Shown here piece by piece: positions 3,480 through 60,126 of a DNA stretch of 60,570 nucleotides. The position numbers and the translations under genes were made by a program. How positions within the stretch are numbered: position 1 is the first letter of the stretch; the number at the start of each line of letters is the position of its first letter. Location of the stretch: the NCBI GenBank assembly GCA_031265515.1, contig JAISCN010000028.1, positions 1-60,570 on the forward strand, given 5' to 3'. This DNA comes from Clostridiales bacterium (GTDB lineage: Bacteria; Bacillota; Clostridia; Lachnospirales; CAMVHY01). The notes under the pieces are model-generated. The model searched no databases and was not told the DNA's origin. It saw nothing but the letters and a program-made list of their open reading frames with translations.

Positions 3480-4325
3480 ATGTTACAACAGACTGAATCT
3501 GACATGAGACGCGAAGATGAAATGATGGGAAGAGAACTTCTAACAGGAGGTATGAGACGTGAAGATGAAGTGATAAGAAGAGAAGCTATCAGAAGAGAAG
3601 GAGAACTTCCAGAAAGAGATATAGAGCGCGAAAATGAAATGATGGTAAGAGAGTTCAACGTTCAGCAAAGAGAACGGATAAGAATAGATCGGATGGTAAC
3701 GGATGACATATACAAAATTATTTTAGCATCTGTTTCTGCTTTTAGTTGTGCTTCTCTGAGTTGTGTTTTTCTCTTACCGCTTTATGCTGCTACGCCTGTG
3801 TCTGCACTTTACATGCTATCTGAAATTGAAAATTTAAAACTAAAGCATTCTAAAGAAGTTGAGAATTTAAGAAAGCAGTTAGAAGATGTAAGTTATGAAT
3901 TATCAGTGAAAAGTTTTCAATTAGCAGAAAAAAATTCTGAATTAGCAAAGAAAAGTTCTGAATCGGAAGAAAAAAGTTCTGAAATCAAATTTCTAAAAGA
4001 ATTTATTGAAGAAAAGGAGTCTTATCTTGCACAGTGCACAAGTGAGTTTCTTGAAAAAATGCGTTATCAAGAAATGACATTTTCAAGTTTATCTAGATCA
4101 TTTAGGTTTGAAAAGGATAAACATCGACGTGAAGTAAGTGAATTAAAACGAAAAATAGAAGAGTTAAAAAATCAAAGACCTCGTTCGATTGTCAGTGATG
4201 AAATATTTTCAATAGAACCACAAAAACGTTTTCCGTCTTCAGTTCTTGAAATGACAGCTCAAATTCGCAAACTTGGAATAATGGCGGAAGAACTAGAAAA
4301 TTCCATATCGGAAACTACTAGATAG
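3480..4325 (+). CDS. orphan membrane-associated coiled-coil protein: R/E-rich N-terminal repeats, an internal hydrophobic segment of about 37 aa, and a C-terminal coiled coil
   Basis: 281 aa with a strong RBS. Three imperfect tandem units of about 17 aa (MRREDEMMGRELL / MRREDEVIRREAI / IERENEMMVREF; nt ~3504-3668). Hydrophobic 'IYKIILASVSAFSCASLSCVFLLPLYAATPVSALYML' (nt 3708-3818). Heptad-like E/K/S/L-rich tail with an 'EK(N/S)SE' triplet repeat. I recognise no family. Confidence 0.75.
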   Translation: MLQQTESDMRREDEMMGRELLTGGMRREDEVIRREAIRREGELPERDIERENEMMVREFNVQQRERIRIDRMVTDDIYKIILASVSAFSCASLSCVFLLPLYAATPVSALYMLSEIENLKLKHSKEVENLRKQLEDVSYELSVKSFQLAEKNSELAKKSSESEEKSSEIKFLKEFIEEKESYLAQCTSEFLEKMRYQEMTFSSLSRSFRFEKDKHRREVSELKRKIEELKNQRPRSIVSDEIFSIEPQKRFPSSVLEMTAQIRKLGIMAEELENSISETTR

Positions 4326-8429: not shown

Positions 8430-9173
8430 TTAGATGACTAGTTTTTGCGGATGTTTTAGTTTATCTAAGCACAACTTAGTTATAGAACAAACCAAAAAAA
8501 ATAACGACAAACCAGCCGTGAAACTTAAACCTATAAATACAGAATTTAATCCAATTTTTAAAAGATTTTTAGCACTTAAGTAAATTAATGAACCACCGGT
8601 GCCTAACAAAGATACTAAAGAAATACAAACAAAAAATTTACACGGACTTTTACATGAATATTTGAATTTATCTAATTCTTGAACCCCTTCTGGTGTTTTT
8701 GAAATTATTGCTTCTTTTCCGCCGGACCGTTTAATAGTTTCTTTGAATTCTTCTACCTTGCGCTTAGTTCTGTATAAAGCACTTTCAAATAAAATTACGT
8801 TAGATTCTAACTTGATACAAAATGCTTTTATAGTTTCAAAGTATTCGTCATATGATGTTGGGAATGAATATTTCGGTATAATACTTCTTATCGTTGAAGT
8901 GGGGCCTTCTAATGTACGTATTACGTTATCGACAATGTATTTCAAATTCGTTTCATTATTTTTAATTGCTATTAATTCTTCAAACAAAGAAATTTGACCT
9001 GAAATAATTTCCTCGACGCTTATTAATAAATTAATTATTGGCTTTGTACTTGGTGATTGATTTTTTTGAAGTAATTTTATAAAATTTTCCACATTTTGTT
9101 TCATTGAAATAACATTTTCATGATGATTTTTTAGTCTTAAAACTGGGTTTAATTCCAATGCTGAGCATTGCAT
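8430..9173 (-). CDS. orphan protein with a C-terminal bilobed hydrophobic hairpin anchor (family member, motif class A)
   Basis: 247 aa, RBS AAAGGAG, no signal peptide. Helical N-domain. Anchor 'FFVCISLVSLLGTGGSLIYLSAKNLLKIGLNSVFIGLSFTAGLSLFFLVCSIT' (nt ~8481-8636) followed by the basic tail 'KLCLDKLKHPQKLVI'. Confidence 0.75.
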   Translation of the reverse strand: MQCSALELNPVLRLKNHHENVISMKQNVENFIKLLQKNQSPSTKPIINLLISVEEIISGQISLFEELIAIKNNETNLKYIVDNVIRTLEGPTSTIRSIIPKYSFPTSYDEYFETIKAFCIKLESNVILFESALYRTKRKVEEFKETIKRSGGKEAIISKTPEGVQELDKFKYSCKSPCKFFVCISLVSLLGTGGSLIYLSAKNLLKIGLNSVFIGLSFTAGLSLFFLVCSITKLCLDKLKHPQKLVI

Positions 9174-16297: not shown

Positions 16298-17551
16298 CTA
16301 ATTTTTAGTTTTACATTTATAAGATTTTCTAAAACATTTATTGTGAACAATAAAAGCAGTTATTGCGCACAAAAATAAAAAAAGAAAACTTGCGCCTGTA
16401 ATTAATGCTGTAAAATTTAGATAGTTAATACTATATTTTAATTTTTCAATTGTTGCTAAAATTATTATAGTGCTTCCTCCGATCACAGTTGCTAAAGATG
16501 ATAAAAGTATTATTACTTTATCTTTTCTTGATATTTTTCTTTGCTCTTTTAATGTTCTCGTTTCTAATTTTGTTTTTGAATTTGTAATTTCCGTATGTAG
16601 AAATGCTGATTCTGATGTTCTGTCTTCAATATCTTTTTCCGAGTTTCTTTCCTCATATATAACTTCTTCATTCTCTATATTAAGATTTTCTGATTCGTTT
16701 AATCTGGATATCCTAGTACTATCAACTAGCATTTTTCGATTTAACAATTTAAATATTTTAAATAATCTTTGTAATTGAGTTTCTGTACGTTTAACAGGAC
16801 TTACTGTTAAGAATCCTTCTGGATCTTGTATATTAAAAAGTAAACTTTCCATTTCGAGATCTAATGTCAGAACATTAATTTGCAAAGGAGATAATAGCTC
16901 TACTATATTTGTAAATATATCCTCGTTATCTTCGATTTCATCAAATAATGTTTGGAATAAAGAACACGTATCTTGAATACTCAATGTACAAAAACTAAGG
17001 TTAGCTAACAGATAAGGTCTGCTGTAATCGCGATTAGATATAACGAAAATTTCTTTAAACTTATCTGCATTAAAATTTATTTCTGTTCTTGCTAAATATG
17101 TTTTAATTGAACTTAACTTATCGGACTCACATAAACTATAAAAATTAGTTAAACTATAAAAATCAGTAAATACATCCACGCATGATTTAAACAATGTATA
17201 TCGACGATCAAAATCACCATCGTTTCTCATAAAGCTTGCATCGTAAGCCATTCTATAAAGAATTATAGAAGCATTTGCAACGCCGTATAAAACTAAAGTA
17301 AGAAAAATTAATATAGACTCGTTCGTTATTCCAACATTATTTATGAGATTACTTTTAATTAGTTCTTTACATGGTAACCTGAATTCGATTCCGGATTCGT
17401 TTTGCCTGCCAAATAAATTTATTATAGTATCAAGTTCAGGATTGGATTCTAATTTCGATTGTTGCAAAACAAAATTAGCTATATCTACGACATTATCACT
17501 TAAAAAAACGTTTATTAATCTCTGATGAATAATTAGGATATCGCCTTCCAT
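16298..17551 (-). CDS. orphan protein with a C-terminal bilobed hydrophobic hairpin anchor (family member, motif class A)
   Basis: 417 aa, no signal peptide. Cys/Phe/Asp-rich globular N-domain, then an acidic/Ser linker. Anchor 'VIILLSSLATVIGGSTIIILATIEKLKYSINYLNFTALITGASFLFLFLCAITAFIV' (nt ~16346-16519). Basic tail 'HNKCFRKSYKCKTKN'. Confidence 0.75.
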   Translation of the reverse strand: MEGDILIIHQRLINVFLSDNVVDIANFVLQQSKLESNPELDTIINLFGRQNESGIEFRLPCKELIKSNLINNVGITNESILIFLTLVLYGVANASIILYRMAYDASFMRNDGDFDRRYTLFKSCVDVFTDFYSLTNFYSLCESDKLSSIKTYLARTEINFNADKFKEIFVISNRDYSRPYLLANLSFCTLSIQDTCSLFQTLFDEIEDNEDIFTNIVELLSPLQINVLTLDLEMESLLFNIQDPEGFLTVSPVKRTETQLQRLFKIFKLLNRKMLVDSTRISRLNESENLNIENEEVIYEERNSEKDIEDRTSESAFLHTEITNSKTKLETRTLKEQRKISRKDKVIILLSSLATVIGGSTIIILATIEKLKYSINYLNFTALITGASFLFLFLCAITAFIVHNKCFRKSYKCKTKN

Positions 17552-32115: not shown

Positions 32116-33000
32116 TTAGGTGTTCATTTCTGGATCTTTAAAAATAGTTTTTTTTGTGATAAGTAATGATGCTGCTAAAAAAACACATACACAAATAGGT
32201 ATAATAATCGGTATTGAAAATTTTGACATAATAAAATACCAAGATAAACTTGATATTAATCCCGTAATGATCAAAACTAAAATTGATATATCAATAACCA
32301 ATCTTTTATCAATTGAATTTTTCTTCTTTGGATTTTCTTTTTTTTGTTGAGATAAACAGCGCGAGTCTTTATATAAGTTTGGTATAGAATAACCATACAT
32401 ATTCTTAAAATTATTATAAATCAAACGAATTGAATAATTTTCAGGTAAATATGTGATGTCATCTGTTTTCGGATTTTTAATTTGTTCTTGAGCATCATTA
32501 AGATTGAAATATATTTGGAGCATCGATAATTCGCTTTTGGAAATGTGACTATAGAACATCAAATTAATCTGATAATTCAATGCATCTAACCAACCTAACA
32601 TACTATAAGTACACATTTGTGTTTTAGCACTGAGTTCGTCAATGATATCACAATTAGTATTGATATACGATGCTAATTGTAGTATAAAAATTAAAAAACA
32701 ATAATAATGTGCGATTTCTTCTTTAATTTTATCATCAAGATCTGGTGTTGTAGCGTTTATTTGCGAAATTACGTATTCTATATCAGGCTTTATGTGATAA
32801 ATAATAAGAGAATCAGATTTAGCTTTTTCCGAATCTATAAAACTATTTATTTTTATTTGATTTTTTTCGAAAAAGTCACATAACTCTGATATAAATTCAA
32901 GGCAATTATATTCTTTGTGAACATTAAAAAAAAGATTTAACCGACTTTCTTGAATATAATTTTGCAAATTTGTTTTTAAAATAACGATCACCTCTTTCAA
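32116..33000 (-). CDS. orphan protein with a C-terminal bilobed hydrophobic hairpin anchor (family member by architecture)
   Basis: 294 aa, no signal peptide. Cys/Tyr/Phe-rich N-domain. A basic stretch 'QQKKENPKKKNSIDKR' is followed by 'LVIDISILVLIITGLISSLSWYFIMSKFSIPIIIPICVCVFLAASLLI' (nt ~32158-32304). Tail 'TKKTIFKDPEMNT'. TTG start is uncertain. Confidence 0.7.
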   Translation of the reverse strand: MKEVIVILKTNLQNYIQESRLNLFFNVHKEYNCLEFISELCDFFEKNQIKINSFIDSEKAKSDSLIIYHIKPDIEYVISQINATTPDLDDKIKEEIAHYYCFLIFILQLASYINTNCDIIDELSAKTQMCTYSMLGWLDALNYQINLMFYSHISKSELSMLQIYFNLNDAQEQIKNPKTDDITYLPENYSIRLIYNNFKNMYGYSIPNLYKDSRCLSQQKKENPKKKNSIDKRLVIDISILVLIITGLISSLSWYFIMSKFSIPIIIPICVCVFLAASLLITKKTIFKDPEMNT

Positions 33001-35945: not shown

Positions 35946-36869
35946 ATGTCAGAAATTGATTTGAATAATATAAATTACAAAGTCGAAAATGTTCTACATC
36001 ATCTGCAACCTACCACTTGTAACACAAATGATAGTTCTATGTGTTATTTAAAACTCGGCAATTCAGGTTTTTATGTTGTTAGCAAAGCTCTTTCTGAACC
36101 TCATGAAATAGATAGCAAACAAGAATCACTTGCAAGACAATTGTGTAACGAAATTAGTAGTGTTTTTGAAGAAAATTTTCCAAAAAAAGTAGAAACTTTT
36201 AGAAAAATTGTAGATTTTTATATTGATACACCTAATGAAAATTTGGTATATGAAGATAAGAATATGAAACGTATTGTCGATGCTTATAGTTTTTCTGTTT
36301 TTTTGACTCTGACATTCTTTAGAAATGAACTTAAAACAGATATCGTGGATATTGAGAATTTACGAGCATCATTCTTAATTACAGAGCATTATTTGTATTA
36401 TTCGAGTCTTAAAGATAGTCTCGAAATTGAAGAAAGAAAAGCATTGATACGCAACGATTCAGTTTTTGGTGATTATCTTTGCTTACAGAAATTTAATAAA
36501 TTAAAAAATGAACAACCAAATATTCAAACTCTTATCCAATGGTTGGATATTTCGTTGCTTTCGGGTGTTTTTATTTTTTTAGTATGTGAGTTTCTTCTGG
36601 CGTCCCTGCTATCCTTTAATATAAATTATGGTATAACATATCCAATTTTTGTTACAGACCGTTTTGGCTATGCGTGTTTCACAACGCTAGGTCAGCTTTT
36701 GCCACTTATTACCGCTATTAGTTTCGTATTGGTCGCAGCGATTGTAGGAATTGTAAATTTTATTGTTGATAAAAGATTACATGGCATGACTGAACAACAA
36801 CTTCTCAAAGCGACTAGCCAATCATTCGAAGAATCTTATGGAATTGGTGTTACATGTACATTAGGATAA
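35946..36869 (+). CDS. orphan protein with a C-terminal two-span hydrophobic domain (family member by architecture)
   Basis: 307 aa with RBS GAAGAGG, no signal peptide. TM1 'ISLLSGVFIFLVCEFLLASLLSF' and TM2 'CFTTLGQLLPLITAISFVLVAAIVGIVNFIV' (nt ~36549-36767). Tail of about 33 aa. Confidence 0.7.
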   Translation: MSEIDLNNINYKVENVLHHLQPTTCNTNDSSMCYLKLGNSGFYVVSKALSEPHEIDSKQESLARQLCNEISSVFEENFPKKVETFRKIVDFYIDTPNENLVYEDKNMKRIVDAYSFSVFLTLTFFRNELKTDIVDIENLRASFLITEHYLYYSSLKDSLEIEERKALIRNDSVFGDYLCLQKFNKLKNEQPNIQTLIQWLDISLLSGVFIFLVCEFLLASLLSFNINYGITYPIFVTDRFGYACFTTLGQLLPLITAISFVLVAAIVGIVNFIVDKRLHGMTEQQLLKATSQSFEESYGIGVTCTLG

Positions 36870-41737: not shown

Positions 41738-41811
<74 letters not shown>

Positions 41812-46635: not shown

Positions 46636-46719
46636 GCAATCTCCTCATAAATATAATTTATTTTGAAACATCAAAATAAAATAAAAAAACATATAAATAC
46701 AAAATAAAATTTTATTTTA

Positions 46720-48141
<1,422 letters not shown>

Positions 48142-48175
48142 TTAATCCTAAATAAAAAAATTAATATTAAAAAAA

Positions 48176-48943
48176 TCAGTTATTTATAATTTCTACCATC
48201 TGTTGAGTAATTTTATTTTGTCTTTCTCGATTATAATTTAACTTTAAATTGCTTATAATTTCTTTTGCACTATCCGATGCTGATTTCATGAATAGCATTC
48301 GAGCGCTATTCTCGCAAATATTGGATTCTACGATAGAAAAATAAATTTTTTCTTTTATATAATTTTTTACGAAAAAAAATAAAACGTCATCTTTGTTTGA
48401 ATCATATATTATTTGTCTTTTGTTATACTCATCAAATGGCAATAGTTTTTCGCAATATGGTTTTAAATTTGTTGCAGAAAAAAATTTATTATAAACAAGA
48501 TATATTTCACGATCTTTGTCAAAATCATTTAATAGCTTTTCTATAATATAATCTAATTTTGACAAATCATTAAAAAACTTATAGACGTTAACTTTATATT
48601 TTTTTGAGATTTTAAATCCCTGATCGCCAAAAATAATCACATTAGAATTTTCACTTTTATCATAAATATCTTTTGCAAATTTAAAAAGATTTAAATTAAA
48701 AGCACCACACAGACCTTTGTTGCTAGTTATTATTATTATATCTTTAAGTTTTTTTCTAAAATTATATTTATTAAAATCAAAATCTTTTTTTAAATTATCC
48801 AAAACGTAAATAAAATCTTTATATTTTTCAAAATAAACTTGTTCTTTTCTCAACTTTGTCATTGATATAATGCTCATAGCATCAGTAGTTTTTTTTATTT
48901 TATAAATACTTTTAAGTTTGCGCTTTATTTCTATTATATTTAT
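48176..48943 (-). CDS. atpG: F1 ATP synthase gamma subunit; start probably ATA 48943
   Basis: C-terminus 'NRERQNKITQQMVEIINN' (gamma signature). The track starts at ATG 48877. The canonical gamma N-terminus '(I)NIIEIKRKLKSIYKIKKTTDAMSIISMTKLRKEQ' is encoded in frame upstream with no ATG/GTG/TTG before the stop at 48971-48973. Confidence 0.85.
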   Translation of the reverse strand: MNIIEIKRKLKSIYKIKKTTDAMSIISMTKLRKEQVYFEKYKDFIYVLDNLKKDFDFNKYNFRKKLKDIIIITSNKGLCGAFNLNLFKFAKDIYDKSENSNVIIFGDQGFKISKKYKVNVYKFFNDLSKLDYIIEKLLNDFDKDREIYLVYNKFFSATNLKPYCEKLLPFDEYNKRQIIYDSNKDDVLFFFVKNYIKEKIYFSIVESNICENSARMLFMKSASDSAKEIISNLKLNYNRERQNKITQQMVEIINN

Positions 48944-49010
48944 AAAATCATCACACTTTTTATTTATTTTTTAGCGTTCAACATAAACAAAATATTTTAT
49001 CTATATTTTT

Positions 49011-50324
49011 TTATTTTCCAAACATATCAAAAATAGATTTTTTATTATTTCCAAACATTTTTAAAATTTTTTTAAAATCATTAAATTTTTTTAGTAAAAT
49101 ATTAACATCGTTAATTTTTTGTCCGGATCCAAGCGAAATTCTCTTTTTTCTAGGACCGTTAATAATATCAGGATTGGCTCTTTCTTTTGGAGTCATAGAC
49201 AAAATTATGGCGCTGTTTCTAAAAAAAGCTTTATCATCAAGTTGTGATTTACCTATCATTTGAGAAAAACCAGGTATCATACTCATAAAATTTTTAGATG
49301 ATCCTAGTTTTTTTAGGCTTTGCATTTGGTCGTAAAAATCTTGTAAATCAAAATCTTTTTTAGTAAAAGTTTTAACTGTCTTTTTTATATCTATGTTTTT
49401 TTCTATTTTTTCGATAACACCGACTACATCACCCATTCCAAGTATTCGTGATGCTATTCTGTCTGGAAAAAATTCTTCTAGGTCACTAACTTTTTCACCA
49501 GTGCCTATAAATTTAATTGGTTTTTTTGTAACAGATGTTATCGATAAAATCGAACCGCCTTTTGTATCGCTATCTAATTTAGTCATTATAACACTATCAA
49601 TTCCTACAGTGTTATTAAAATCTTTAGCAACATTAGCAGCTTCTTGGCCCATCATTGAATCTACTACTAAAAAAATTTCTTGAGGCCAAACTTTTCTTTT
49701 AATTTCTTTTAATTCATTCATCATATTTTCATCGACATTTAATCTACCCGCAGTATCTATTAACACACAATCAAAATTGTTTTTTAAAGCGTATTCTGTA
49801 CTAAGTTCAGCAATTTCTACTGGACTTTTGTTCTCTTTAAAAAAAACAAAAACATTATTATTTTCACCAAGTATTTTTAATTGATTTACGGCTGCTGGTC
49901 TATAAATATCACAAGCAACTAACATAACTTTTTTATTTATTTTTTTTAAATAAACAGCAAGTTTACAAGCATGAGTAGTTTTACCAGAACCCTGCAATCC
50001 AACCATCATGTATATAGTTAAATTATTCGAAAAACTTAATTTTGATTGAATAGAGCCCAAATCATTTACTAGTTCGTCATTTACGAATTTAATTATATGC
50101 TGTGACGGAGTAAGACTATTAATAATATTTTGATTAATTATTTTTTCTTTTATTTTTTTGATAAAATTTCTAGCAACTTCTAAATTTACATCAGCATCCA
50201 AAAAAGTGTTTTTAACATCGTTTAAAGTTTGTTCGATATCTTTTTCGCTTAATCTAGTCTTTTTATTTATCGATTCAAATATTTTCTGAAATTTATTTGA
50301 TATATTTTCAAAAAAAATTTTCAA
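49011..50324 (-). CDS. ffh: signal recognition particle protein Ffh
   Basis: 437 aa. 'GLQGSGKTT', 'DTAGR', 'TKLD', and a Met-rich M domain. AGAGGTG lies only 2 nt before TTG 50324 but 8 nt before ATT 50316-50318, which would give MFFENISNKFQ. Confidence 0.93.
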   Translation of the reverse strand: MKIFFENISNKFQKIFESINKKTRLSEKDIEQTLNDVKNTFLDADVNLEVARNFIKKIKEKIINQNIINSLTPSQHIIKFVNDELVNDLGSIQSKLSFSNNLTIYMMVGLQGSGKTTHACKLAVYLKKINKKVMLVACDIYRPAAVNQLKILGENNNVFVFFKENKSPVEIAELSTEYALKNNFDCVLIDTAGRLNVDENMMNELKEIKRKVWPQEIFLVVDSMMGQEAANVAKDFNNTVGIDSVIMTKLDSDTKGGSILSITSVTKKPIKFIGTGEKVSDLEEFFPDRIASRILGMGDVVGVIEKIEKNIDIKKTVKTFTKKDFDLQDFYDQMQSLKKLGSSKNFMSMIPGFSQMIGKSQLDDKAFFRNSAIILSMTPKERANPDIINGPRKKRISLGSGQKINDVNILLKKFNDFKKILKMFGNNKKSIFDMFGK

Positions 50325-50393
50325 GACACCTCTGTTCTTTATTATTATAAATAAAGTTAAGTTTATAAAAACTCTAAAACTAAAATATGCTTT

Positions 50394-51719
50394 TTAGCCG
50401 TGTATAACTTTATAAATAATTTTATTTTTCTTTATTTTTTTATCGCTAAGAACAATTGCATCTTTTAAAATATCGACTGCACGATCTATTTTTTTGTTAT
50501 CGTTACAAAAAATTTCGAATAATATCTCTCTTTTTTTTATAAAATCGTTAATTTTTGTTTTTATAATAATTCCTGCTTCATAATCTATTATTTCGCTTTT
50601 TTTAGTTCTTCCTGCGCCCAATTCAAAAGCTGCTTGACCAATTGTTCTGGCATTTATTTTATTTACAAAACCTTCTTTGTCACTATATATTTTTAATTTA
50701 TATTTAGCTTGTTTTTTAATTATTTTATTATAATCAAAAATTTCATCAGATTGGTTTTTTGTAAAATCTAAAAATTTTTTATATGCATCAAAATTTTCTA
50801 ATTTATTTTTTAATAATTCATAAGCGGATTTTTTATCATTAATAATTCCAGATAAAATCAGCATATTAGAAGCTATCTCATACGATAATTTTAATAATCT
50901 TAAAGAATTTTTGTTTACCTGATTTTTTAAAATCATAATGGCTTCTTGAATTTCTAATAAATTTCCAACATGACTTCCCAGCGGTTCATTCATGTCACTA
51001 ATAATTGCGACAATTTTTTTTTTAAATTTCTTTCCAATTAAAATCATTATATTTGCTAATTTTAAAGCAGAATTCAAATCTTGAATTAAAGCGCCATTTC
51101 CAAATTTAACATCTAATACAAAACCGTCGGCGCCAGTAGCAATTTTTTTGCTCATTATACTAGACGCTATTAACGGCAAACTTTCTACAGTAGAAGTAAC
51201 ATCTCTTAATTCATAAATTTTTTTGTCTGCTACAGCAATTTCATCCGTTTGTTCTATTATGGCTAAACCTGTTTTTTTTGCTAATCCTATTGCTTGTTTA
51301 TCGCTTAAATTTGTTTTTATATTAATAGAATTTAATTTATCGATTGTTCCACCAGTGTATCCTAAACCACGTCCTGACATTTTAATCACAGGCAGACCAC
51401 ACGAAGCAACCCATGGCGCTACTATTAATGTAACAGTATCACCAATACCACCAGTGCTATGTTTATCAATTTTTATCCCAGGTATATCAGATAAATCTAA
51501 AACCTTTCCTGAATTTATCATAGCTCTTGTAAAATCAAAAACTTCTTTCTCAGACATTCCATTTATAAAAATTGCCATCAACATTGCAGAAGTTTGATAA
51601 TCTTTGATTTTATTTTTAATAACACAATCAATAAAAAAAAATATTTCTTTTTCGTTGAGTTCGTAGCCATCTCGTTTTTTTGCAACTATTTCTAAAATAT
51701 TTATAATTTTTTCCACCAT
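50394..51719 (-). CDS. pdp: pyrimidine-nucleoside phosphorylase
   Basis: 'KKRDGYELNEKEI', 'DKHSTGGIGD', 'SGRGLGYTGGTIDKL'. I prefer ATG 51719 (MVEKII...) to the track's TTG 51731. Confidence 0.9.
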   Translation of the reverse strand: MVEKIINILEIVAKKRDGYELNEKEIFFFIDCVIKNKIKDYQTSAMLMAIFINGMSEKEVFDFTRAMINSGKVLDLSDIPGIKIDKHSTGGIGDTVTLIVAPWVASCGLPVIKMSGRGLGYTGGTIDKLNSINIKTNLSDKQAIGLAKKTGLAIIEQTDEIAVADKKIYELRDVTSTVESLPLIASSIMSKKIATGADGFVLDVKFGNGALIQDLNSALKLANIMILIGKKFKKKIVAIISDMNEPLGSHVGNLLEIQEAIMILKNQVNKNSLRLLKLSYEIASNMLILSGIINDKKSAYELLKNKLENFDAYKKFLDFTKNQSDEIFDYNKIIKKQAKYKLKIYSDKEGFVNKINARTIGQAAFELGAGRTKKSEIIDYEAGIIIKTKINDFIKKREILFEIFCNDNKKIDRAVDILKDAIVLSDKKIKKNKIIYKVIHG

Positions 51720-51742
51720 TTTAAATATCAAAAAAAAGTTTT

Positions 51743-54700
51743 TTATTCTCGAACAGATTGTCTTTCGACAGATCTTTTTCTTAAATTAAAAATTGCAAAA
51801 ACTGCAATCAACGCTCCGATTATAGCAATAGATCCCATAGCGCCACACGAAACAGCAACACATATCGCTGATAAGTTAGCAATATTAATAGATAAGCTGC
51901 CAAAAATAATACAAGATGAGGCAAAAATAGTAGCGGTCGATCCTCCGATTAATCTTTCTTTTTTATACAGTTCCATGATTTTTTGATTTGAACTTTCTAA
52001 ACCTTTTTCTATTTTTTCTAATTCAACTGTCTTTTCACTTATATCTTGTTGATATATTCCCGCTCTTTCTGAGAATTGTGTTTCTAAAGATGTAATTTCT
52101 GTACTTTTTTGTTCCATTTCGTCATTCTGTTGTCTCAATCTTTCGCGAAGCGATTGTAATTCTTCCTGTTGAGCACTATTTTCTTCTCTTGCAGTATTCA
52201 AATCTAATCTAGTTCGTTCTAAATCTTCCTGAAATTTAATTTCACGTTCTCTAACTTCAGTTTCTCTTCGTTTAATATTTTCCTGAATTCCTTGTTGTTC
52301 AGATCTAAGATCTTCCATTTCTGCTATTAATTGTTTGTTTTCTGCTGTTAATTGTTCTTTAAGTGTACAAGCATCCCCAGCAACAACTCTTTGTTCTTCT
52401 AATCGATCTTTTAATGATTTTTCTCGATTTTGCGTGTCGATTATCTCAGTTCGTGTACCTTCTAATTCTCCTTCTAATTTTTTTATCTGATTTAACTGCG
52501 TTTTTATTATTTCTGATCGTTCCATTGCAGCTTCTGTCACACTTACAATTTTAGAGTTTAGTTCTTCAAGTGAATCTTGATACGTTTTTAATTCTAAAGT
52601 TTGTTTATCATTTGATTCTCTTAATTCTTTTTCTCTATCTCTAAGTTCATCTATTTCATGTAATATTTTATCTAAATTTTCTTTTAGTGAACTAAGTTTA
52701 CTTTCTTTTTCTTTCAAAGTTTTTTTAGTTGCAGATGATTCTTGAGAATTATCTTTAAGTCTTGCAGTTAGATCATCCAATTGAGTAGTCAAATTTTGTA
52801 TTGTCGAATTAGCTTGTGCTAAATCTTTTTCTCTTCTTGCTAAATCCTCTCTGGCGCTTTTGATATCTTTGACGTGAGTAACACGTTCTGCTTGTAAAAC
52901 TTCTATTTTTGATCTTAAAACAGCAACTGTTTGATTTAAACTTTCATATTCTTTTGCTTTTACTCCGGAACAAGATTCTAATCTTTGATTAATTTCTCTA
53001 AATTCTTGCAGTTCTGCTTTTAAATTTTCTATTTCTCCTTTAGAACGTGATGAAGTTTCAAGTTCTATTTTCAAACGCGTTTCCAAATCTGAAATAGTTT
53101 TTTTGGACTGTTCTGATTCTCTCATTTTTGACTCAGCAGCTCGATCCAGAATTTCTGCATGATTTTTTCTTTCTGCTTCAAGCCTTGAATTCAACTCAGA
53201 AATAGCTTTTCTTAGCTTTTCAAATTCACTTTTAACACTTTCTCTTGTGAACTTAGTACTTTCATATTCCGTGGCTAATTTTGAGTGATCTCGTTTTATC
53301 TCAGCTAATTTTCTATTTAAATCTCTATCAATTAGCTCTAATTGTTCAATTCTGCTCTCATATGCTTTAATTTTTTTTTCGTATAATCTTCTTTCAATAG
53401 AATGTTCTGCAATTATACTGTCTTCTATTTTTTCTATGTCTTCTTGTTCTTCAGGTAAACTCCTTGCGAGGGCACTTCTATCTCTTGAGATTTTACGTGA
53501 TAATTTCAATAAAGTAGTATCTTTTCTACTTGTGGGAATTGCATCTAATTCTTCTAATAACCGTTTATTTTTTTCTCTAACATTTTGAAGATGAGCAATT
53601 AATGCCGGCGGTCTTTGATTGATTTCTTCTTCAAGAATTTTTAATCTTTGCGTTAACCTAGATATCTCTTGACGTTGTGTTGATAAGTTTTCTCTTAATT
53701 TACTTTTTTTCTCACTTTCTTCAACAACAACAAGACTAATCCTTTGAATTTCTTGTCCTAGCTCATCTATTGTTTCACGAGATTTATGCAGATCTTCTCT
53801 CATCTTTTCTTCACATGCTGATAATTCTGCATTTAGTCTTTCTAATTCCAAATTTCTTTTACTAAGATCTTGAGTCTCTTGTTGAGATTTTACTTCTCTA
53901 GTTTTTAGTAATTCACACTCATCAGTTAAACCCCGTGTTTCAGAAACAGCGGTTTCTAATTCATGTTCCAATTCTTCTATTTTAGATAAGCGACTCTCCA
54001 ATTCTGAAATTAATTCAGAATTTTGCGTACTTAAATATTTAAGTTGTTCTTTATTTGCGTCATCAGCATTTTGTAATTCTGTTAATCTTTTAGAAAGCAC
54101 TCTAAGTTTTGTTGCTAAACTATCCTCAACGCTGTAAGTGCATCTAAGGACCCCTACATGACTAATTAATTCTAATTCAGCTTCAAATATTTCTGATATT
54201 TTTTTGTATAATGGGTCACAAAAACTTTCGATCAAATTACAAGTATCCATGACAGATTGTACAGAATCTATACTCGTCAGTACAGAACTTGGTGTTAGTC
54301 CTAAATTTAAATCTATTGGTGTTTGAGGCGTATAAATCACTTTTTCAATTGATAATCTAACATTTGAAACAGCTATAAAAATAGCGCCTAATTCTTTGCG
54401 TAATTTTTCTGAATTGCCTTCCTCTTCTGCACATTTTATTTCTAAGTGTGTTTCGGCATGTAAAGCGGTTATCAATTTTTTTTCCAATTCTTGCAGAACT
54501 CTCATTTGATTTTTTTTCTTTTTAACGTAATATTCACGATAGTGTTGCATCGGAATGTAAAGTTCGAAAGTAAAAAAATCAATTTTTTCATAAAGAAGAT
54601 AAAAAAAATCAAAACCAAAATCTGTTAATATACCGTCTTCATGTAAAGGAAATGGTAATGAAAATATTGCTTCAGTTAATCTATAAATAATACAATCATA

Positions 54701-55192
54701 ATTAATTAATTTAAATAGATCTGTTGTCCTGTATTCTGTATATTGTCTTTCACCCAAACTGATTACATACAATCCAATAAAAAAATCAAGACATTGCTGA
54801 GTATATCCTATACCAAGTGATTTTGTGTCAACTGGTGACAATTCTAGGGATGAAGTTTCAATTTCGATACTTCTTTGTCTGATAAATTCAGAACTGTCTA
54901 TCATTCTCTTTAGATTAAAATCACTATAACCCGAGTTTATCAAATGTGAAAAAATAACTCCGGTATCATGGATAATTAAATTCATTCCAGGGTGAGTAAC
55001 GTTCGATACAGCATTGATTTCATCATCATCTTCCGTTGTTACGTCAATACCTGGTACCCGGTAAGGTGCACTTGTATTTCCTATAAGCTTAAATTTTAAA
55101 AATTTTTGAATACTTAATTTCATTTGTTCAAAGGTTGTTTCTCCTATGACAGGTATGGGTTTTCTTCTTCTAGATTGCATAACTTTCATCAA
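51743..55192 (-). CDS. giant orphan coiled-coil protein with a C-terminal bilobed hairpin anchor (family member, motif class A)
   Basis: 1149 aa. A globular N-domain of about 340 aa is followed by about 740 aa of near-continuous E/L/R/K/Q/S/T heptad-like sequence. The anchor is 'IGGSTATIFASSCIIFGSLSINIANLSAICVAVSCGAMGSIAIIGALIAVFAIFNL' (nt 51782-51949), with tail 'RKRSVERQSVRE'. The start is ambiguous (TTG 55192, ATG 55189 or ATG 55180). It ends 23 nt upstream of pdp on the same strand. Confidence 0.8.
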   Translation of the reverse strand: MMKVMQSRRRKPIPVIGETTFEQMKLSIQKFLKFKLIGNTSAPYRVPGIDVTTEDDDEINAVSNVTHPGMNLIIHDTGVIFSHLINSGYSDFNLKRMIDSSEFIRQRSIEIETSSLELSPVDTKSLGIGYTQQCLDFFIGLYVISLGERQYTEYRTTDLFKLINYDCIIYRLTEAIFSLPFPLHEDGILTDFGFDFFYLLYEKIDFFTFELYIPMQHYREYYVKKKKNQMRVLQELEKKLITALHAETHLEIKCAEEEGNSEKLRKELGAIFIAVSNVRLSIEKVIYTPQTPIDLNLGLTPSSVLTSIDSVQSVMDTCNLIESFCDPLYKKISEIFEAELELISHVGVLRCTYSVEDSLATKLRVLSKRLTELQNADDANKEQLKYLSTQNSELISELESRLSKIEELEHELETAVSETRGLTDECELLKTREVKSQQETQDLSKRNLELERLNAELSACEEKMREDLHKSRETIDELGQEIQRISLVVVEESEKKSKLRENLSTQRQEISRLTQRLKILEEEINQRPPALIAHLQNVREKNKRLLEELDAIPTSRKDTTLLKLSRKISRDRSALARSLPEEQEDIEKIEDSIIAEHSIERRLYEKKIKAYESRIEQLELIDRDLNRKLAEIKRDHSKLATEYESTKFTRESVKSEFEKLRKAISELNSRLEAERKNHAEILDRAAESKMRESEQSKKTISDLETRLKIELETSSRSKGEIENLKAELQEFREINQRLESCSGVKAKEYESLNQTVAVLRSKIEVLQAERVTHVKDIKSAREDLARREKDLAQANSTIQNLTTQLDDLTARLKDNSQESSATKKTLKEKESKLSSLKENLDKILHEIDELRDREKELRESNDKQTLELKTYQDSLEELNSKIVSVTEAAMERSEIIKTQLNQIKKLEGELEGTRTEIIDTQNREKSLKDRLEEQRVVAGDACTLKEQLTAENKQLIAEMEDLRSEQQGIQENIKRRETEVREREIKFQEDLERTRLDLNTAREENSAQQEELQSLRERLRQQNDEMEQKSTEITSLETQFSERAGIYQQDISEKTVELEKIEKGLESSNQKIMELYKKERLIGGSTATIFASSCIIFGSLSINIANLSAICVAVSCGAMGSIAIIGALIAVFAIFNLRKRSVERQSVRE

Positions 55193-55317
55193 CTTTTTTT
55201 GATAGATTTTTTAAAAAATATTAACGGTTCACCATTTCTAATTATACTTTGATTATACAATTATCTTTATTAATATCAAATATTCTACCATTAAAAAAAT
55301 TGACCTTAATTCATACA

Positions 55318-56202
55318 TCAAGTAGAAAACGAAAACTTTTTAACTAAAACAATACCAACAGTCGTTGGACCAACGTGACTTCCAATTACAATTCCGATAT
55401 CAAAAGGTTTAATTTCTATATCTAAATTATATTTGTTTTTTATCGTATTTATTAATTCTATAGCTTCTGTGTTTGATTTCGAGTGGATAACTCCGTATGC
55501 ATAATCATATTTTTTTTCATCTGTGCTTAACAATGTCAACTCAATTATTTTTTTAATCGCATTCTTTCTACCAAAAGTTTTTGAATGTGCAATTATCTCT
55601 CCATCAACAATTCCGATAATTGGTTTTATATTTAAAATATTTGCAGCGGCTGCGGCAGCTTTGCCTATTCGACCGCCTCTTTTTAAATGTTCGAGAGAAT
55701 CAACAGTCAAAAATATTTTTGTATCTTTTTTTATACTTTCTATAAAATCTTTGGTTTCAAATATATTTTTATTGGCATCGCGAGCTTTTGCAGCTTGAAT
55801 AGCGAGCAAACCTTCGCCCATAGAACCACTTTTAGAATCGACTACAACAATTTTTCTATCTGGAAATTTTTCAGAGAGACCTTTGCTTATATTAACAACA
55901 CTTTGATAAGCACCACTTAGTTTCGAACTCATAGATATATACAAAATATCAATACCATCATTTAAAAAATAATTAAATTTATCAAGATAATCTTTTTCCG
56001 ACGGAAATGATGTTTTTGGATAAAGCGTCTTATCACTTATTAATTTCTCATAAAATTCTTCATTGCTTATATCAATATGTTCACGCAAATAATTAATTCT
56101 ATCAAGACTACAGTAAAAACTAATAATTTCTATATCATATTTCGATGCAGTTTCTAAATCCAAATCAGAACATGAATCACATATTATTTTAAAATTTGCC
56201 AA
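55318..56202 (-). CDS. DegV-family fatty-acid-binding protein
   Basis: 294 aa. 'IICDSCSDL', 'KTSFPS', 'LSGAYQS', 'GRIGKAAA', typical of DegV/FakB. Confidence 0.88.
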   Translation of the reverse strand: MANFKIICDSCSDLDLETASKYDIEIISFYCSLDRINYLREHIDISNEEFYEKLISDKTLYPKTSFPSEKDYLDKFNYFLNDGIDILYISMSSKLSGAYQSVVNISKGLSEKFPDRKIVVVDSKSGSMGEGLLAIQAAKARDANKNIFETKDFIESIKKDTKIFLTVDSLEHLKRGGRIGKAAAAAANILNIKPIIGIVDGEIIAHSKTFGRKNAIKKIIELTLLSTDEKKYDYAYGVIHSKSNTEAIELINTIKNKYNLDIEIKPFDIGIVIGSHVGPTTVGIVLVKKFSFST

Positions 56203-56325
56203 TTTAAAATATTCAACTCCAAAAAATTTTTTAATATCTTTATCTCGAGTTTTATTTTTATGTAAAAATATTTATAGTTATAATTATCAACAAATTTTTT
56301 AAGTTAATCATATAAAAACATATAA

Positions 56326-58911
56326 CTAAAATTTAATATTTAAGTTCTTCAAAACTTCTCTGGTTTTATTTATTATTCTGTCATGCAAACTAATATCAAT
56401 TCCTCCTGCTTTTGCATAATTTTTGTTTCCGCCACCCTTAAAATTAAACTCACGAGACAAATTTAAAATTAAATCATTAATATCAAAATTATTTATATTA
56501 CTCAAAGCTGTTAAATTATCATCGTTAAATAAAAATATTACGCAATTATCTTTTTTGTTTTTCATATTATCGATTAATAATTTAAATTTATTTTGATCTA
56601 TTTCTTTATTCAGATAAAAAATAAAGCTAATTTTATTTTTAAAAGTTTCGCAATTATTTATTAAATTATTAGCCACTATTTTTATTTCTTTTGATTTAAA
56701 TTTCTTAATCTCTTCATTAGTTTTTTTTTCTTTTATCTCTAAATAATTAATTTTTTCCAACAATTTTTTTTCCGCACCAATATAATAATTTCTAACTGAG
56801 TCTCCAGTTATAGCTTCTATTCTTTTAATACCCACAGAAATATTTTTTTTATTTATAATTTTAAAACCTAAAATTTCGCTCGTATTTTTAACATGAGTAC
56901 CACTACACATTTCCATACTAAAGTCATCTATATTAACTACTCTAACGACATCTCCATACTTATTATCAAAAAGAGCTATTGCACCACTTTTTTTAGCTTC
57001 ATCGATGTTTTTATAAAATATATCAACGTTCGCACATTTACTAATTTTTTTATTAACAAAATCTTCTATCTCGATTAAATCAATATTATTTAATTCTTTT
57101 TCATAATTAAAATCAAATCTTAATTTTTTTTCATCAACACTTGAACCCATCTGTCTTATATTTTTATTTAAAATTTTTTTTAAAGCTCTGTGAAGTAAAT
57201 GTGTTGCAGTATGGTTTCTAGAAATAGATTTTCTACGATATTTATCTAAAATCATCTCAACATCTTGATTTTCAAAAATTTCTCCGTTAATTAACACACA
57301 TTCATGTAAAAATTTATTTCCAATTCTATAACAAGCAACTATTTTAATTTCTCCAGTTTTTGATCTTAAAATTCCAGTATCAAAAGTTTGCCCAGCACTC
57401 TCAGCAAAAAAAATGCTTTCTCTTAAAACTATAAGGATTTTTTTATCAATAATATTAATTTTTTTTACTAAGATATTTTCATCAATAATAGCCACAACAG
57501 AGCTCTCCAAATATTCTGTATCATACAAAAATTTAGTTTCTCCAAAACTTTTTAGCAAATCAATCAATACTTGATTGATCTTATCTTCATTTTTTTTATT
57601 ATTAGATCTAGACTTTTCACGTTGTTCATTTACTTTTTTATAAAAACTTTCTGAATCTATCTCGCAATTACTATCATCAGCAAATTCTTGAACAATCTCA
57701 AGCGGAAATCCATGTGTATCATATAACCTAAACGCTTCTTCTCCGGAAATTATTCTATTTTTTTTATCATCGCTATTTATATCAAATATTATACTTTTTA
57801 TTTTTTCTATTCCAAGATTTAACGTTTCATCAAATTTATTTTTTTCTTGTTTAATTAAATCTAAAATTTTACTCTTTTTATTCTCAATTTCGCCATAACA
57901 ATCACAGTAAAATTCCATATATTTTATAGCTATACTTTCCAAAATATTATTTTTGATATCTAAAATTTTTATCTTACACATAGCTCTTCTAAGCAATTTT
58001 CTTAAAACATATCCACGGCCATCATTCGAAGGATAAATATCATCACTGATCATAAAAACCGCGGCTTTTATATGATCCATAATAATTCTTACAGCCACAT
58101 CAACTTTTTTGCTATTCCCATAATTAAAATTTAAATTACCAAAAATTTCGTTGCTAATAATTTTATTTTCTTCTATATCAAAAATATAATTAACTTTTTG
58201 TAATACAGCAACAATCCGTTCGAGACCCATTCCGGTATCGATATTTTTTTGGCTTAAATTTAAATATTCATCATCACTAATCTTATTAAATTGTGTAAAA
58301 ACAAGATTCCAGATTTCAATATAATTATCACAATTACACCCAGGACCACAATTTCTATTTTCGCATTTAATATTAAATTCATCGCCACGATAATAATAAA
58401 TCTCACTACATGGACCGCACGGACCTTTGTCAATTTCCCAAAAATTATCTTTTTTATCTAATCTAAAAATTTTTTTTCTATCTAAAATTTCGCACCAGAT
58501 TTCATATGCTTCTAAATCATCTTTAAAAACAGTTACAAATAACTTTCTTTTGTCTATTTCTAAAATTTTTGTTAAAAATTCCCATGCAAAGTGAATTGCT
58601 TCACGTTTAAAATAATCACCAAATGAAAAATTTCCTAACATTTCAAAAAAAGTTGCATGACGTGAAGTTTTTCCAACATTGTCAATATCATTTGTTCTTA
58701 TACATTTTTGACAAGAAACTATACGTTTATAAACAGCTACTTCTTCACCAGAAAAATATTTTTTATACGGCGCCATTCCAGAATTTATTAATAAAAGACT
58801 ATCGTCATTTTGCGGAACTAAAGACAAAGAATTAAACGTTTTATGATCTTTGTTTTTAAAAAAATCTAAAAATAATTTTCTTATAGAATTTAAATCAAAA
58901 ATTTTATTCAA
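56326..58911 (-). CDS. alaS: alanine--tRNA ligase
   Basis: 861 aa. 'HATFFEMLGNFSFGDYFK', 'FWEIDKGPCGPCSEIYY', 'DTGMGLERI', editing-site 'HTATHLLH' and 'CSGTHV', and a C-terminal DHHA1-like region. Confidence 0.95.
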   Translation of the reverse strand: MNKIFDLNSIRKLFLDFFKNKDHKTFNSLSLVPQNDDSLLLINSGMAPYKKYFSGEEVAVYKRIVSCQKCIRTNDIDNVGKTSRHATFFEMLGNFSFGDYFKREAIHFAWEFLTKILEIDKRKLFVTVFKDDLEAYEIWCEILDRKKIFRLDKKDNFWEIDKGPCGPCSEIYYYRGDEFNIKCENRNCGPGCNCDNYIEIWNLVFTQFNKISDDEYLNLSQKNIDTGMGLERIVAVLQKVNYIFDIEENKIISNEIFGNLNFNYGNSKKVDVAVRIIMDHIKAAVFMISDDIYPSNDGRGYVLRKLLRRAMCKIKILDIKNNILESIAIKYMEFYCDCYGEIENKKSKILDLIKQEKNKFDETLNLGIEKIKSIIFDINSDDKKNRIISGEEAFRLYDTHGFPLEIVQEFADDSNCEIDSESFYKKVNEQREKSRSNNKKNEDKINQVLIDLLKSFGETKFLYDTEYLESSVVAIIDENILVKKINIIDKKILIVLRESIFFAESAGQTFDTGILRSKTGEIKIVACYRIGNKFLHECVLINGEIFENQDVEMILDKYRRKSISRNHTATHLLHRALKKILNKNIRQMGSSVDEKKLRFDFNYEKELNNIDLIEIEDFVNKKISKCANVDIFYKNIDEAKKSGAIALFDNKYGDVVRVVNIDDFSMEMCSGTHVKNTSEILGFKIINKKNISVGIKRIEAITGDSVRNYYIGAEKKLLEKINYLEIKEKKTNEEIKKFKSKEIKIVANNLINNCETFKNKISFIFYLNKEIDQNKFKLLIDNMKNKKDNCVIFLFNDDNLTALSNINNFDINDLILNLSREFNFKGGGNKNYAKAGGIDISLHDRIINKTREVLKNLNIKF

Positions 58912-59089: not shown

Positions 59090-59287
59090 CTAAATTTCAT
59101 CCTGTTGTAGACGACATCCTTCTAACCACTGCTCGCATTCTCGGTACTTTTCTTTGATTTTTTCATATCGTAATGAGCACAATTTCGATTCATAAACGCT
59201 ACAAATTGTTATATTAATAATTAACTTACAAACAAAATAATCCAAGGCATTGCACAACCAAGCGTATTCAAATGAATAAGTCCACAA
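59090..59287 (-). other. overlapping out-of-frame ORF that probably carries the displaced 3' end of gene 59221-60126
   Basis: The other frame reads '..YFVCKLIINITICSVYESKLCSLRYEKIKEKYRECEQWLEGCRLQQDEI*'. This would complete a second hydrophobic lobe and add a basic tail, as in the other family members. It has only a TTG start and no RBS of its own. Confidence 0.45.
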
Positions 59288-60126
59288 CCATCAAATTCAG
59301 TAAATGCATTTTTAGTTTGTCTGACTAACAAATTAAAAATTATTTCACCTGAAACCAGTGTAAGTGATAGAACAGGAATTAGTGAAAGCCAATGACGGAT
59401 GCTATAGCAAAGGACATTTTCTATGGCTTTTTCTTTGTGTATATACAATATGTAATCGTAAAATTCTTGATTGTTAAGAAGTTGTTTTTTTATTTCTTTC
59501 TCTTCGACACCTTTAAGCAACAAACAAACGGCTTTTATATAACCATTATTCCACATATCAAAATAATTTCGACCAGAATATTTCTGCTCTCGATAATGAG
59601 GAGCTGAATATTGATGTCTTGTTGTTTCAGATACATAAGTATCAGATTCAGGAATAGTTGGATGTTTCTTAAGACTATCAATTGCTAGACCAAATAAAAT
59701 AATAGCAGCTTCGCGCGGGAAAATAAACTGATCAACATCTACATGTCCCAAACTTGGAAGATACACTCGTTTAAGACTTTTAATCCACTCTTCAGGTTTT
59801 GCAATATAATTTTCTACAATCTCCGCTATAAAAGATAAACCACTATCCTCGCTAAAAACTTCTCTTATAAGCGAAACTATATCTCTTGCCTGAGATATAT
59901 TTTCATTAATTAAAGCATCGTTTGCTTGAAATATAGCAACATGATCTAAACTCTCACCAATAACTGAACTTTTTTCATTAAGTATTCCTGGTAATTCGCA
60001 TTGAAAACGTTTAGACTTTGCGTAAGATGAATCAATATCGTAATTAATGTACCTGTCAGATCCAAATCTCAAATTATTTTTTATATCTAAAAACTGTTGA
60101 TAAACACTTTCTCTAGTTAGTTGCAT
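59221..60126 (-). CDS. orphan protein with a C-terminal hydrophobic domain, apparently interrupted by a frameshift (family member by architecture)
   Basis: 301 aa with RBS AAGAGGGA, no signal peptide. TM1 'WLSLIPVLSLTLVSGEIIFNLLV', loop, then '..GCAMPWIILFVS*'. The stop falls inside the second hydrophobic lobe. See 59090-59287. Confidence 0.65.
   Translation of the reverse strand: MQLTRESVYQQFLDIKNNLRFGSDRYINYDIDSSYAKSKRFQCELPGILNEKSSVIGESLDHVAIFQANDALINENISQARDIVSLIREVFSEDSGLSFIAEIVENYIAKPEEWIKSLKRVYLPSLGHVDVDQFIFPREAAIILFGLAIDSLKKHPTIPESDTYVSETTRHQYSAPHYREQKYSGRNYFDMWNNGYIKAVCLLLKGVEEKEIKKQLLNNQEFYDYILYIHKEKAIENVLCYSIRHWLSLIPVLSLTLVSGEIIFNLLVRQTKNAFTEFDGCGLIHLNTLGCAMPWIILFVS

Follow-up and report, generated by a model that had tools for sequence, protein, structure and literature searches.

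A long coiled-coil ORFan with a C-terminal hydrophobic anchor in an AT-rich, Clostridia-like genome

The chlamydial inclusion membrane (Inc) proteins, of which IncA is an example, carry a bilobed hydrophobic domain of ~40-60 amino acids (aa) that is rich in small residues, together with a coiled coil and without a Sec signal peptide. They are lineage-specific ORFans and form a repertoire of unrelated proteins that have only the hairpin in common. The golgins giantin, golgin-84 and CASP are jointed rods of ~100 nm, mostly parallel dimers, with an anchor at the C-terminus and a distal capture region at the N-terminus. The Legionella effectors LegC2, LegC3 and LegC7 join a coiled coil to two hydrophobic helices. 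Inserted in host membranes, they disturb vesicle tethering and fusion; they belong to a Gram-negative bacterium and require its Dot/Icm type IVB system. EzrA, Scy/FilP and Mycoplasma HMW2 are long cytoplasmic helical rods at or under the membrane that position the division, polarity or attachment machinery, and SMC, Rad50, MukB and JetC contain long coiled-coil arms. Reduced genomes of host-associated organisms often contain giant coiled-coil ORFans. Here we describe a giant open reading frame (ORF), at 51743..55192 on the minus strand of a 60,570-nucleotide (nt) stretch of DNA from a Clostridiales bacterium (contig JAISCN010000028.1, GenBank assembly GCA_031265515.1), and compare it with these systems. 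The stretch, which is the entire contig, is referred to as the window, and the ORF and its predicted product as the giant.

The giant gene is a genuine, intact, lineage-specific gene. Judged from its sequence, it is a protein that would work like a membrane-anchored coiled-coil tether and that belongs to no tested family, a generic architecture in an ORFan sequence. As the first-pass annotation had it, the giant is the longest ORF of the window in the ORF listing. It has 1149 aa when counted from TTG 55192 and ends with the stop TAA at 51743-51745. The probable starts are ATG 55180 (1145 aa, the NCBI and Logan call) or ATG 55189 (1148 aa, the IMG call), and there is no room for a 5' extension, with a stop preceding TTG 55192. 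An assembly artefact can be discounted as the source of the long frame, because the independent Logan assembly of run SRR14710922 reproduces positions 44733-60369 of the window base for base. At the base composition of the giant, a stop is expected once per ~11 codons and the chance of 1149 open codons is ~10^-46; the remaining five frames of the same interval contain 38-124 stops. The GC contents at the three codon positions (GC1/GC2/GC3 = 0.44/0.33/0.16) follow the same GC1 > GC2 > GC3 ordering as in the adjoining genes, with a GC3 equal to theirs.

The synonymous codon usage of the giant is that of the 28 housekeeping genes in the window, as illustrated by AGA (0.67 in the giant and 0.63 in housekeeping genes), TTA (0.54 and 0.60), GAA (0.91 and 0.84) and AAA (0.93 and 0.90). 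Its extra GC is confined to codon positions 1 and 2 and comes entirely from the amino-acid composition, in which E (13.8%), R (7.3%), Q (5.1%), S and T are abundant and N, I and K are scarce. Since the codon usage is native and the extra GC is a matter of amino-acid composition, the giant appears to be a long-term resident of this genome. Transfer from a GC-richer donor was rejected on the grounds that neither GC3 nor synonymous codon usage departs from that of the housekeeping genes. Recent repeat expansion was also rejected as the origin of the giant, in which neither tandem DNA repeats nor internal protein repeats were found. A total of 564 of the 1149 codons (49%) are one substitution short of a stop. 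At 5% neutral divergence 11.6 nonsense hits would be expected, and the probability of no stop is 9e-6. Long residence together with an intact frame implies that the giant has been kept under purifying selection, as far as codon statistics can tell. Selection had been argued earlier from the persistence of an intact 3.4-kb orphan in a genome that has trimmed other genes; the stop-prone codons and the native codon usage arrive at the same view by another route. The giant offers a clean case of a long ORF held open against AT-biased, stop-prone mutation in a domain-trimming genome.

The largest part of the giant is a coiled-coil rod at residues 355-1081 (727 aa; 51950..54130, minus strand), which is delimited by heptad statistics and by the secondary structure of an AlphaFold2 (AF2) model. 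Over residues 361-1075 the a/d contrast is 0.63, compared to 0.385 +/- 0.02 in shuffled sequences, and residues 711-989 run in a single heptad register with no skip. When the heptad positions are counted over five segments of constant register (455-533, 604-685, 711-989, 995-1045 and 1041-1081), hydrophobic residues make up 75% of position a (L, I) and 64% of position d (L), and 12-18% of each of b, c, e, f and g. Position g is acidic (E in 23/76) and position e is basic (R in 17/77). Such a g-acidic/e-basic pattern of g-e' pairs is classic for parallel dimeric coiled coils. Only 4 Pro and 10 Gly residues are found among the 727 residues, with all four prolines (P528, P529, P553 and P580) lying in a putative hinge zone at residues 526-585 (53438..53617, minus strand). 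The earlier description of residues ~340-1075 as a long heptad stretch with few Pro or Gly is borne out by these 727 canonical heptad residues and by an a/d contrast above that of the shuffles.

The single-sequence AF2 model of residues 341-1149 is ~96% helix, with a mean predicted local distance difference test (pLDDT) score of 66 and a predicted template modelling (pTM) score of 0.29. In this model the rod is made of helices 355-526, 528-550, 554-645, 650-712, 718-815, 823-934 and 941-1081, with at least six breaks, near 527, 551-553, 646-649, 713-717, 816-822 and 935-940. Full extension at 0.1485 nm per residue would give a length of 108 nm, which is a maximum. Because the rod is segmented and jointed, the figure of ~100 nm is an upper bound. 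The first-pass annotation had pictured one continuous rod on the order of 100 nm; the order of length holds as a maximum, but the continuity does not.

The rod is followed by a hydrophobic anchor at residues 1083-1137 (55 aa; 51782..51946, minus strand), which is rich in the small residues G, A, S and C. It is preceded by the basic motif KKER and followed by the basic C-terminal tail RKRSVERQSVRE (51746..51781, minus strand; net charge +3). On the Kyte-Doolittle scale the anchor is bilobed (KD19 up to 2.37), with lobe 1 at ~1086-1105, a short N-L-S turn, and lobe 2 at ~1109-1137. On a Hessa-type scale, lobe 2 (1117-1135) scores as an autonomous transmembrane helix with a dG19 of ~-1.0 kcal/mol, and lobe 1 is marginal, failing as an autonomous transmembrane segment at its best dG19 of +2.6; the scale is position-independent with values from the literature, and all dG figures given here are approximate. 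The C-terminus had been described as a bilobed hydrophobic block plus a tail, which agrees with the Kyte-Doolittle profile but only in its second lobe with the Hessa-type scale. The AF2 model places anchor helices at 1094-1114 and 1116-1144 with low confidence. The transmembrane segments of the housekeeping proteins in the window have a median dG19 of -1.43, and the ~-1.0 of lobe 2 falls in their range; lobe 2 therefore should be hydrophobic enough for targeting by the signal recognition particle (SRP) and YidC. The basic flanks (KKER and RKRSVERQSVRE) would be best matched by a hairpin whose two ends lie in the cytoplasm, in agreement with the positive-inside rule.

The N-terminal head, residues 1-235 (54488..55192, minus strand), is of mixed alpha/beta character and rich in F, Y, D and I. 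Its single-sequence AF2 model has a pLDDT of 34, unusable for fold assignment. The head is connected to the rod by a helical linker, residues 236-354 (54131..54487, minus strand), with short heptad runs that are broken by a Pro/Gly-bearing loop at 289-301. Residues ~1-340 had been taken as globular; this can be kept for residues up to ~235, and the segment from 236 to 354 is already helical-looking. A signal peptide was sought at the N-terminus, MQSRRRKPIPVIGETTFEQ, and none was found, the hydrophobic core being absent. In the Kyte-Doolittle profile there is no hydrophobic segment before residue 1083. Motif scans of the giant returned neither a Walker A motif (G....GK[ST]) nor an LPXTG-like sorting motif ([LN]P.[TS][GNA]).

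No relative of the giant was detected at any level of search. A word-indexed search of 5.8 billion proteins with the full-length sequence, in which 8000 candidates were scored and coiled-coil proteins may have crowded out others, returned only the giant itself. Since that search scores 8000 candidates only, the head (residues 1-370) was also run exhaustively with phmmer (HMMER) against 1.84 billion (1.84e9) representative proteins, and at E <= 0.001 it again matched only itself. A word search with the anchor (residues 1070-1149) gave no match and missed even the giant, so it is a weak test. Sequence searches of the PDB with the full giant and with the head, a Pfam search with the head, and a scan of metagenome contigs for the giant all returned nothing. 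A Pfam scan of the whole giant at E <= 1 gave only TMF_DNA_bd (16 bits against a cut-off of 35). Across Pfam, NCBIfam, PADLOC and PHROGs the rod had only sub-threshold matches of 15-63 bits to the arms of SMC, Rad50, JetC, LmuB and SbcC, the best being SMC TIGR02168 with 63 bits against a cut-off of 567, over arm positions 675-986 only. The Mycoplasma helix-rich protein model TIGR04523 scored 24 bits, below its cut-off of 270. Pfam gave no match to IncA or another effector and no hinge domain, and Pfam and NCBIfam gave no match to EzrA or DivIVA-type division scaffolds. A Foldseek search of the rod model against the PDB found nothing at E <= 1e-3 and listed only generic coiled coils of Smc, axonemal and iSH2 type, with a Bacillus subtilis Smc arm fragment on top (E = 0.03). 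The first-pass annotation had called the gene an orphan, and by all of these protein, PDB, family-model and metagenome searches the giant is a true ORFan.

We propose, with a probability of about 0.5, that the giant pairs into a parallel dimeric rod, is anchored in the membrane of the bacterium itself and lies on its cytoplasmic side, where it may serve as a tether, spacer or scaffold. The head and rod would be made in the bacterial cytoplasm and would stay there because there is no signal peptide. The C-terminal block would enter the membrane from the cytoplasmic side as a helical hairpin, with the autonomous lobe 2 pulling the marginal lobe 1 into the membrane. The rod would pair as a parallel, in-register homodimer, placing two anchors at one end and two heads at the other, at most ~100 nm apart, with the Pro/Gly-containing breaks serving as joints. 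The head could then bind a partner, for example the nucleoid, a division or envelope machine, or another copy of the giant. From the sequence we infer the topology, the parallel dimeric state, the identity of the membrane that hosts the giant, and its tethering role. If this proposal is true, the giant would join the other lineage-specific coiled-coil scaffolds with a membrane anchor, and its interest would be a local one, in the cell biology of an uncultured, genome-reduced, Clostridia-like bacterium.

Several observations weigh against a scaffold in the bacterium's own membrane. The giant has no homologue and there is no known bacterial family with its layout, and the EzrA-like membrane-anchored coiled-coil scaffolds carry their anchor at the N-terminus. 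The marginal hydrophobicity of lobe 1 means that the hairpin topology is not secure. The composition of the giant departs from that of the rest of the proteome, which may be merely the composition of a coiled coil. There is no canonical Shine-Dalgarno sequence before ATG 55189 or ATG 55180; a Shine-Dalgarno-like motif is found upstream of 7 of the 9 other orphan genes examined. Finally, the abundance of hairpin orphans within 60 kb, described below, would be odd for ordinary inner-membrane proteins and recalls the Inc repertoires of vacuolar bacteria.

The comparison with the described systems brings out both likenesses and differences. With the long cytoplasmic rods the giant would share a position at or under the membrane. 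However, EzrA has an N-terminal transmembrane helix and spectrin-like repeats, whereas the anchor of the giant is C-terminal, and Scy, FilP and HMW2 have no transmembrane anchor at all. With the golgins it would share the ~100-nm, jointed, mostly parallel-dimeric rod (727 aa in the giant), the C-terminal anchor, and a distal N-terminal region that may capture a partner. The anchor itself could be either a hairpin or one transmembrane helix with an interfacial segment. Unlike the golgins, the giant is bacterial with native bacterial codons, and it has a double hydrophobic block instead of their one transmembrane domain. No homology was found, the TMF_DNA_bd match staying below its cut-off and a match to CCDC39 being faint. 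The LegC effectors are much shorter than the giant, and no sequence similarity between them was detected. The bilobed domain that marks the Inc proteins is present at residues 1083-1137, though with a marginal lobe 1 (+2.6), and the giant shares with them the coiled coil, the missing Sec signal peptide and the status of a lineage-specific ORFan beside unrelated hairpin proteins. It differs from them in having no sequence similarity, in the location of the hairpin at the extreme C-terminus, and in a size that is unusually large for the class. The bacterium that encodes it belongs to Bacillota, and a fully hydrophobic lobe 2 with basic flanks favours the bacterium's own membrane.

The alternative that best survives builds on this likeness to Inc proteins. 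Here, the giant and other hairpin orphans would be exported into a host-derived membrane of a protist cell, with the head and rod facing the host cytosol in the manner of a golgin, a tether or a SNARE, and capturing or fending off organelles or vesicles. The first-pass annotation had suggested both a spacer, tether or cytoskeletal element and a golgin or SNARE mimic in a host membrane; the evidence added here for either is circumstantial. We regard the host-membrane alternative as unlikely on the present evidence, which falls on both sides. The giant has the feature that defines Inc proteins, a bilobed hydrophobic domain of ~55 aa rich in small residues. It also has company. Pfam assigns no family to about ten of the window's ORFs, and six of these, one of them weakly, share the layout of the giant, namely a soluble part and paired hydrophobic helices without a signal peptide. 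Including the giant, this amounts to seven family-less proteins of the kind in 60 kb, or ~1/6 of the genes in the window. By one mechanical rule, 5 of 39 ORFs in the window are of the hairpin type (one of them a GT2 glycosyltransferase), compared to 3 of 711 in 65 unrelated bacterial control loci, whose GC content is different from that of the window (Fisher p = 1.5e-5).

The six orphans are grouped with the giant by architecture only. The 281-aa orphan at 3480..4325 (plus strand) has a 38-aa bilobed block (~78-115) followed by a C-terminal coiled coil; its N-terminus contains the repeated acidic-basic motifs MRREDEMMGRE, MRREDEVIRRE and IRREGE, with an R/(R+K) of 0.57 and 16% E. The order of N-terminal region, bilobed block and coiled coil in this protein resembles that of chlamydial IncA, which favours an Inc-like reading. 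Transmembrane pairs are predicted at the C-termini of the 247-aa orphan at 8430..9173 (minus strand; 180-199 and 211-236, after a soluble N-domain) and of the 417-aa orphan at 16298..17551 (minus strand; 346-369 and 378-407, with a basic tail). The 294-aa orphan at 32116..33000 (minus strand) ends in a 59-aa double hydrophobic block (229-287), and the 307-aa orphan at 35946..36869 (plus strand) has a transmembrane pair at 196-226 and 247-277. The 301-aa orphan at 59221..60126 (minus strand), with weakly hydrophobic C-terminal segments (247-268 and the extreme C-terminus), is possibly related in layout. No sequence kinship among the hairpin orphans was detectable, which counts against the Inc-like reading, and a shared upstream motif among them was not evident. 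Paralogy between the head of the giant and the other hairpin orphans was considered and rejected as not significant (best shuffle z 4.6; BLASTP E = 0.12).

The hydrophobicity of the anchors bears on export from both directions. Exported transmembrane effectors usually lie just below the hydrophobicity threshold for inner-membrane targeting (PMC6110835), and the marginal lobe 1 of the giant is like many of them. However, in lobe 2 and in most orphan transmembrane segments the hydrophobicity suffices for the bacterial membrane; the orphan segments have a median dG of -0.95, compared to -1.43 for the housekeeping segments, and so are about equally hydrophobic. The basic flanks on both sides of the anchor, in keeping with the positive-inside rule, and the missing Pfam match to IncA or any other effector also stand against export. 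A delivery route is a further difficulty. No secretion-system gene is present among the proteins of the 60-kb window, and to our knowledge no injectisome is known in Bacillota. The peptidoglycan toolkit of the window is full (MurB, PBP1, MraY, MurD, FtsW, MraW and M23), and a 130-kDa protein with transmembrane helices would have to cross the wall.

Whether there is a host cell at all has to be judged from the genome. The GC content is 23-31% over 2-kb windows, ~26% in most of them, under genetic code 11, and the genes include CodY, DegV/FakB, PepF, Trk, F-ATPase subunits and a secreted 5'-nucleotidase. The first-pass annotation had pointed to trimmed mfd and thrS genes, rightly in both cases: Mfd has 663 aa (27012-29003, plus strand), begins at its RID domain and is missing the UvrB-homology module, and ThrRS has 554 aa (37327-38991, minus strand) and is without the TGS domain. 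The shortened proteins are consistent with domain loss in a reduced genome. AlaS (56326-58911, minus strand) is at most 48% identical to anything among 5.8 billion proteins, with named matches of 39-43% in Clostridia, and a scan of the GTDB species genomes with the product of the pyrimidine-nucleoside phosphorylase gene pdp found best matches of 45-57% identity in Ignavibacteria, Atribacterota and mixed Clostridia and no close relative of the host genome. It looks like a reduced, AT-rich genome from a Bacillota lineage with affinity to Clostridia. Its 26% GC and truncated Mfd and ThrRS give it a host-restricted appearance in favour of an intracellular life, for which there is precedent among small-genome Clostridia associated with protists. 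Intracellular Clostridia in termite-gut flagellates have 27-33% GC, genomes of 1.0-1.3 Mb and a host membrane around the cells (PMC10579323). Small-genome Ruminococcaceae/Acutalibacteraceae associated with rumen ciliates have 25-33% GC, and some of them carry extracellular contractile injection systems (eCIS; bioRxiv 10.1101/2025.07.29.667580). Against such a placement, the closest matches to AlaS reach only 48% identity, and the contigs of the two best come from ordinary spore-formers and show no synteny with the window.

A narrower form of the same idea is, in our estimation, quite unlikely. It supposes a Gram-positive intracellular bacterium derived from Clostridia, whose Inc-like repertoire has the giant as its largest member, and it has the giant delivered by a route other than type III secretion and acting as a golgin-like tether or spacer of ~100 nm. 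Should the hairpin pattern extend genome-wide in an intracellular organism, it would suggest that Gram-positive endosymbionts evolved an Inc-like decoration of host membranes independently. A true Inc-like repertoire would have arisen by convergent evolution and would be the first inclusion-membrane-protein system known outside the Gram-negative vacuolar bacteria. This Gram-positive endosymbiont group has been recognised only lately, and we know of no host-interaction membrane proteins described for it.

The giant could also be held by a single-pass tail anchor with lobe 1 at the interface, or it could be an external adhesin fibril like M protein. The failure of lobe 1 as an autonomous segment (best dG19 +2.6) speaks for the former, and a parallel dimeric coiled coil followed by a C-terminal hydrophobic segment and a charged tail is the layout of Gram-positive surface fibrils. 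We nevertheless consider this distinctly improbable, as there is neither a signal peptide nor an LPXTG-like motif, a stop before TTG 55192 leaves no upstream extension of the ORF, and a +3 tail on the outside would break the positive-inside rule.

It is very improbable that the giant is a non-functional or very young ORF, either a decaying remnant or a recent sequence that is not under selection. It is a singleton with no homologue and has no Shine-Dalgarno sequence, as such an ORF might. However, 564 of its 1149 codons need a single change to become a stop, and without selection the frame would not survive a few percent divergence; the housekeeping-like codon usage implies long residence, and strong heptad order and a well-formed anchor are unexpected of noise. 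A chromosome-organising or defence ATPase of the SMC, Rad50 or MukB kind, diverged past recognition, is hardly credible and effectively refuted by the missing ATPase motifs: the giant shares with these proteins and with JetC arm-like coiled coils of similar length, and its sole database matches are the arms of SMC (63 bits), JetC, LmuB, Rad50 and SbcC, with the Smc arm fragment its best Foldseek match (E = 0.03), but the scores lie far under the cut-offs (63 vs 567 bits) and cover coiled-coil arms only, there is no Walker A motif, ATPase head or hinge, a membrane anchor occupies the C-terminus where the second head half belongs, and the g/e charges suit a parallel dimer and not an intramolecular antiparallel arm.

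The sequence around the giant offers candidate expression signals in favour of a scaffold in the bacterium's own membrane. A sigma-70-like promoter candidate at 55252..55279 (minus strand; TTGATA, 16 nt, TATAAT; 11/12 matches) lies in the 125-nt spacer between degV and the giant, ~60-70 nt upstream of the start codons of the latter. It is the top-scoring site in a scan of 50200-56400, as a consensus match only and not a proof of expression, and the count of sigma-70-like sites in the scanned region is not above the shuffled expectation. The gene downstream of the giant is pdp (50394..51719, minus strand; its ORF is also given to 51731). The reported gap of 23 nt between the two is correct if pdp starts at ATG 51719. 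No terminator was found between the giant, pdp and ffh, and the three genes are probably on one transcript, given the 23-nt gap and the missing terminators. The sigma-A-type promoter candidate and the apparent co-transcription with housekeeping genes argue for vegetative, constitutive expression. The earlier description of the giant as wedged between degV and pdp might suggest a meaningful context, but conserved degV-pdp adjacency was not found in other genomes, and for this reason the position carries no functional message.

A few further features of the window were noted. Adjoining the 281-aa orphan, the ORF at 4444-5028 (plus strand) encodes another E-rich soluble orphan, and the 305-aa, S/N/T-rich orphan at 11968-12885 (plus strand) has no Pfam match and no transmembrane segment and ends in ...NDDCGCN. 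Four of the ~10 orphans start with Met-Gln (ATGCAA), namely those at 51743-55180 (minus strand, the giant), 4444-5028 (plus strand), 8430-9173 (minus strand) and 59221-60126 (minus strand). The same start is found in none of the ~29 housekeeping ORFs, and Gln is rare in the proteome (1.9%). These starts could be small-sample chance or a shared feature of the N-terminus or of translation initiation. Genes of the salvage type in the window include a 5'-nucleotidase with a signal peptide (39405-40964, plus strand), pdp, guanylate kinase (35082-35663, minus strand) and phosphoribosyl pyrophosphate (PRPP) synthetase (10683-11675, plus strand), which suggests salvage of nucleosides or nucleotides from the surroundings. 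The only Rfam matches in the window are a cluster of three tRNAs (41656-41962, minus strand) and one long-arm tRNA (23761-23848, plus strand). All genes beyond 44.8 kb are on the minus strand. The cumulative GC skew climbs to ~34 kb and declines steadily from ~44 kb, a turn that may reflect a replication-related strand switch or gene orientation alone.

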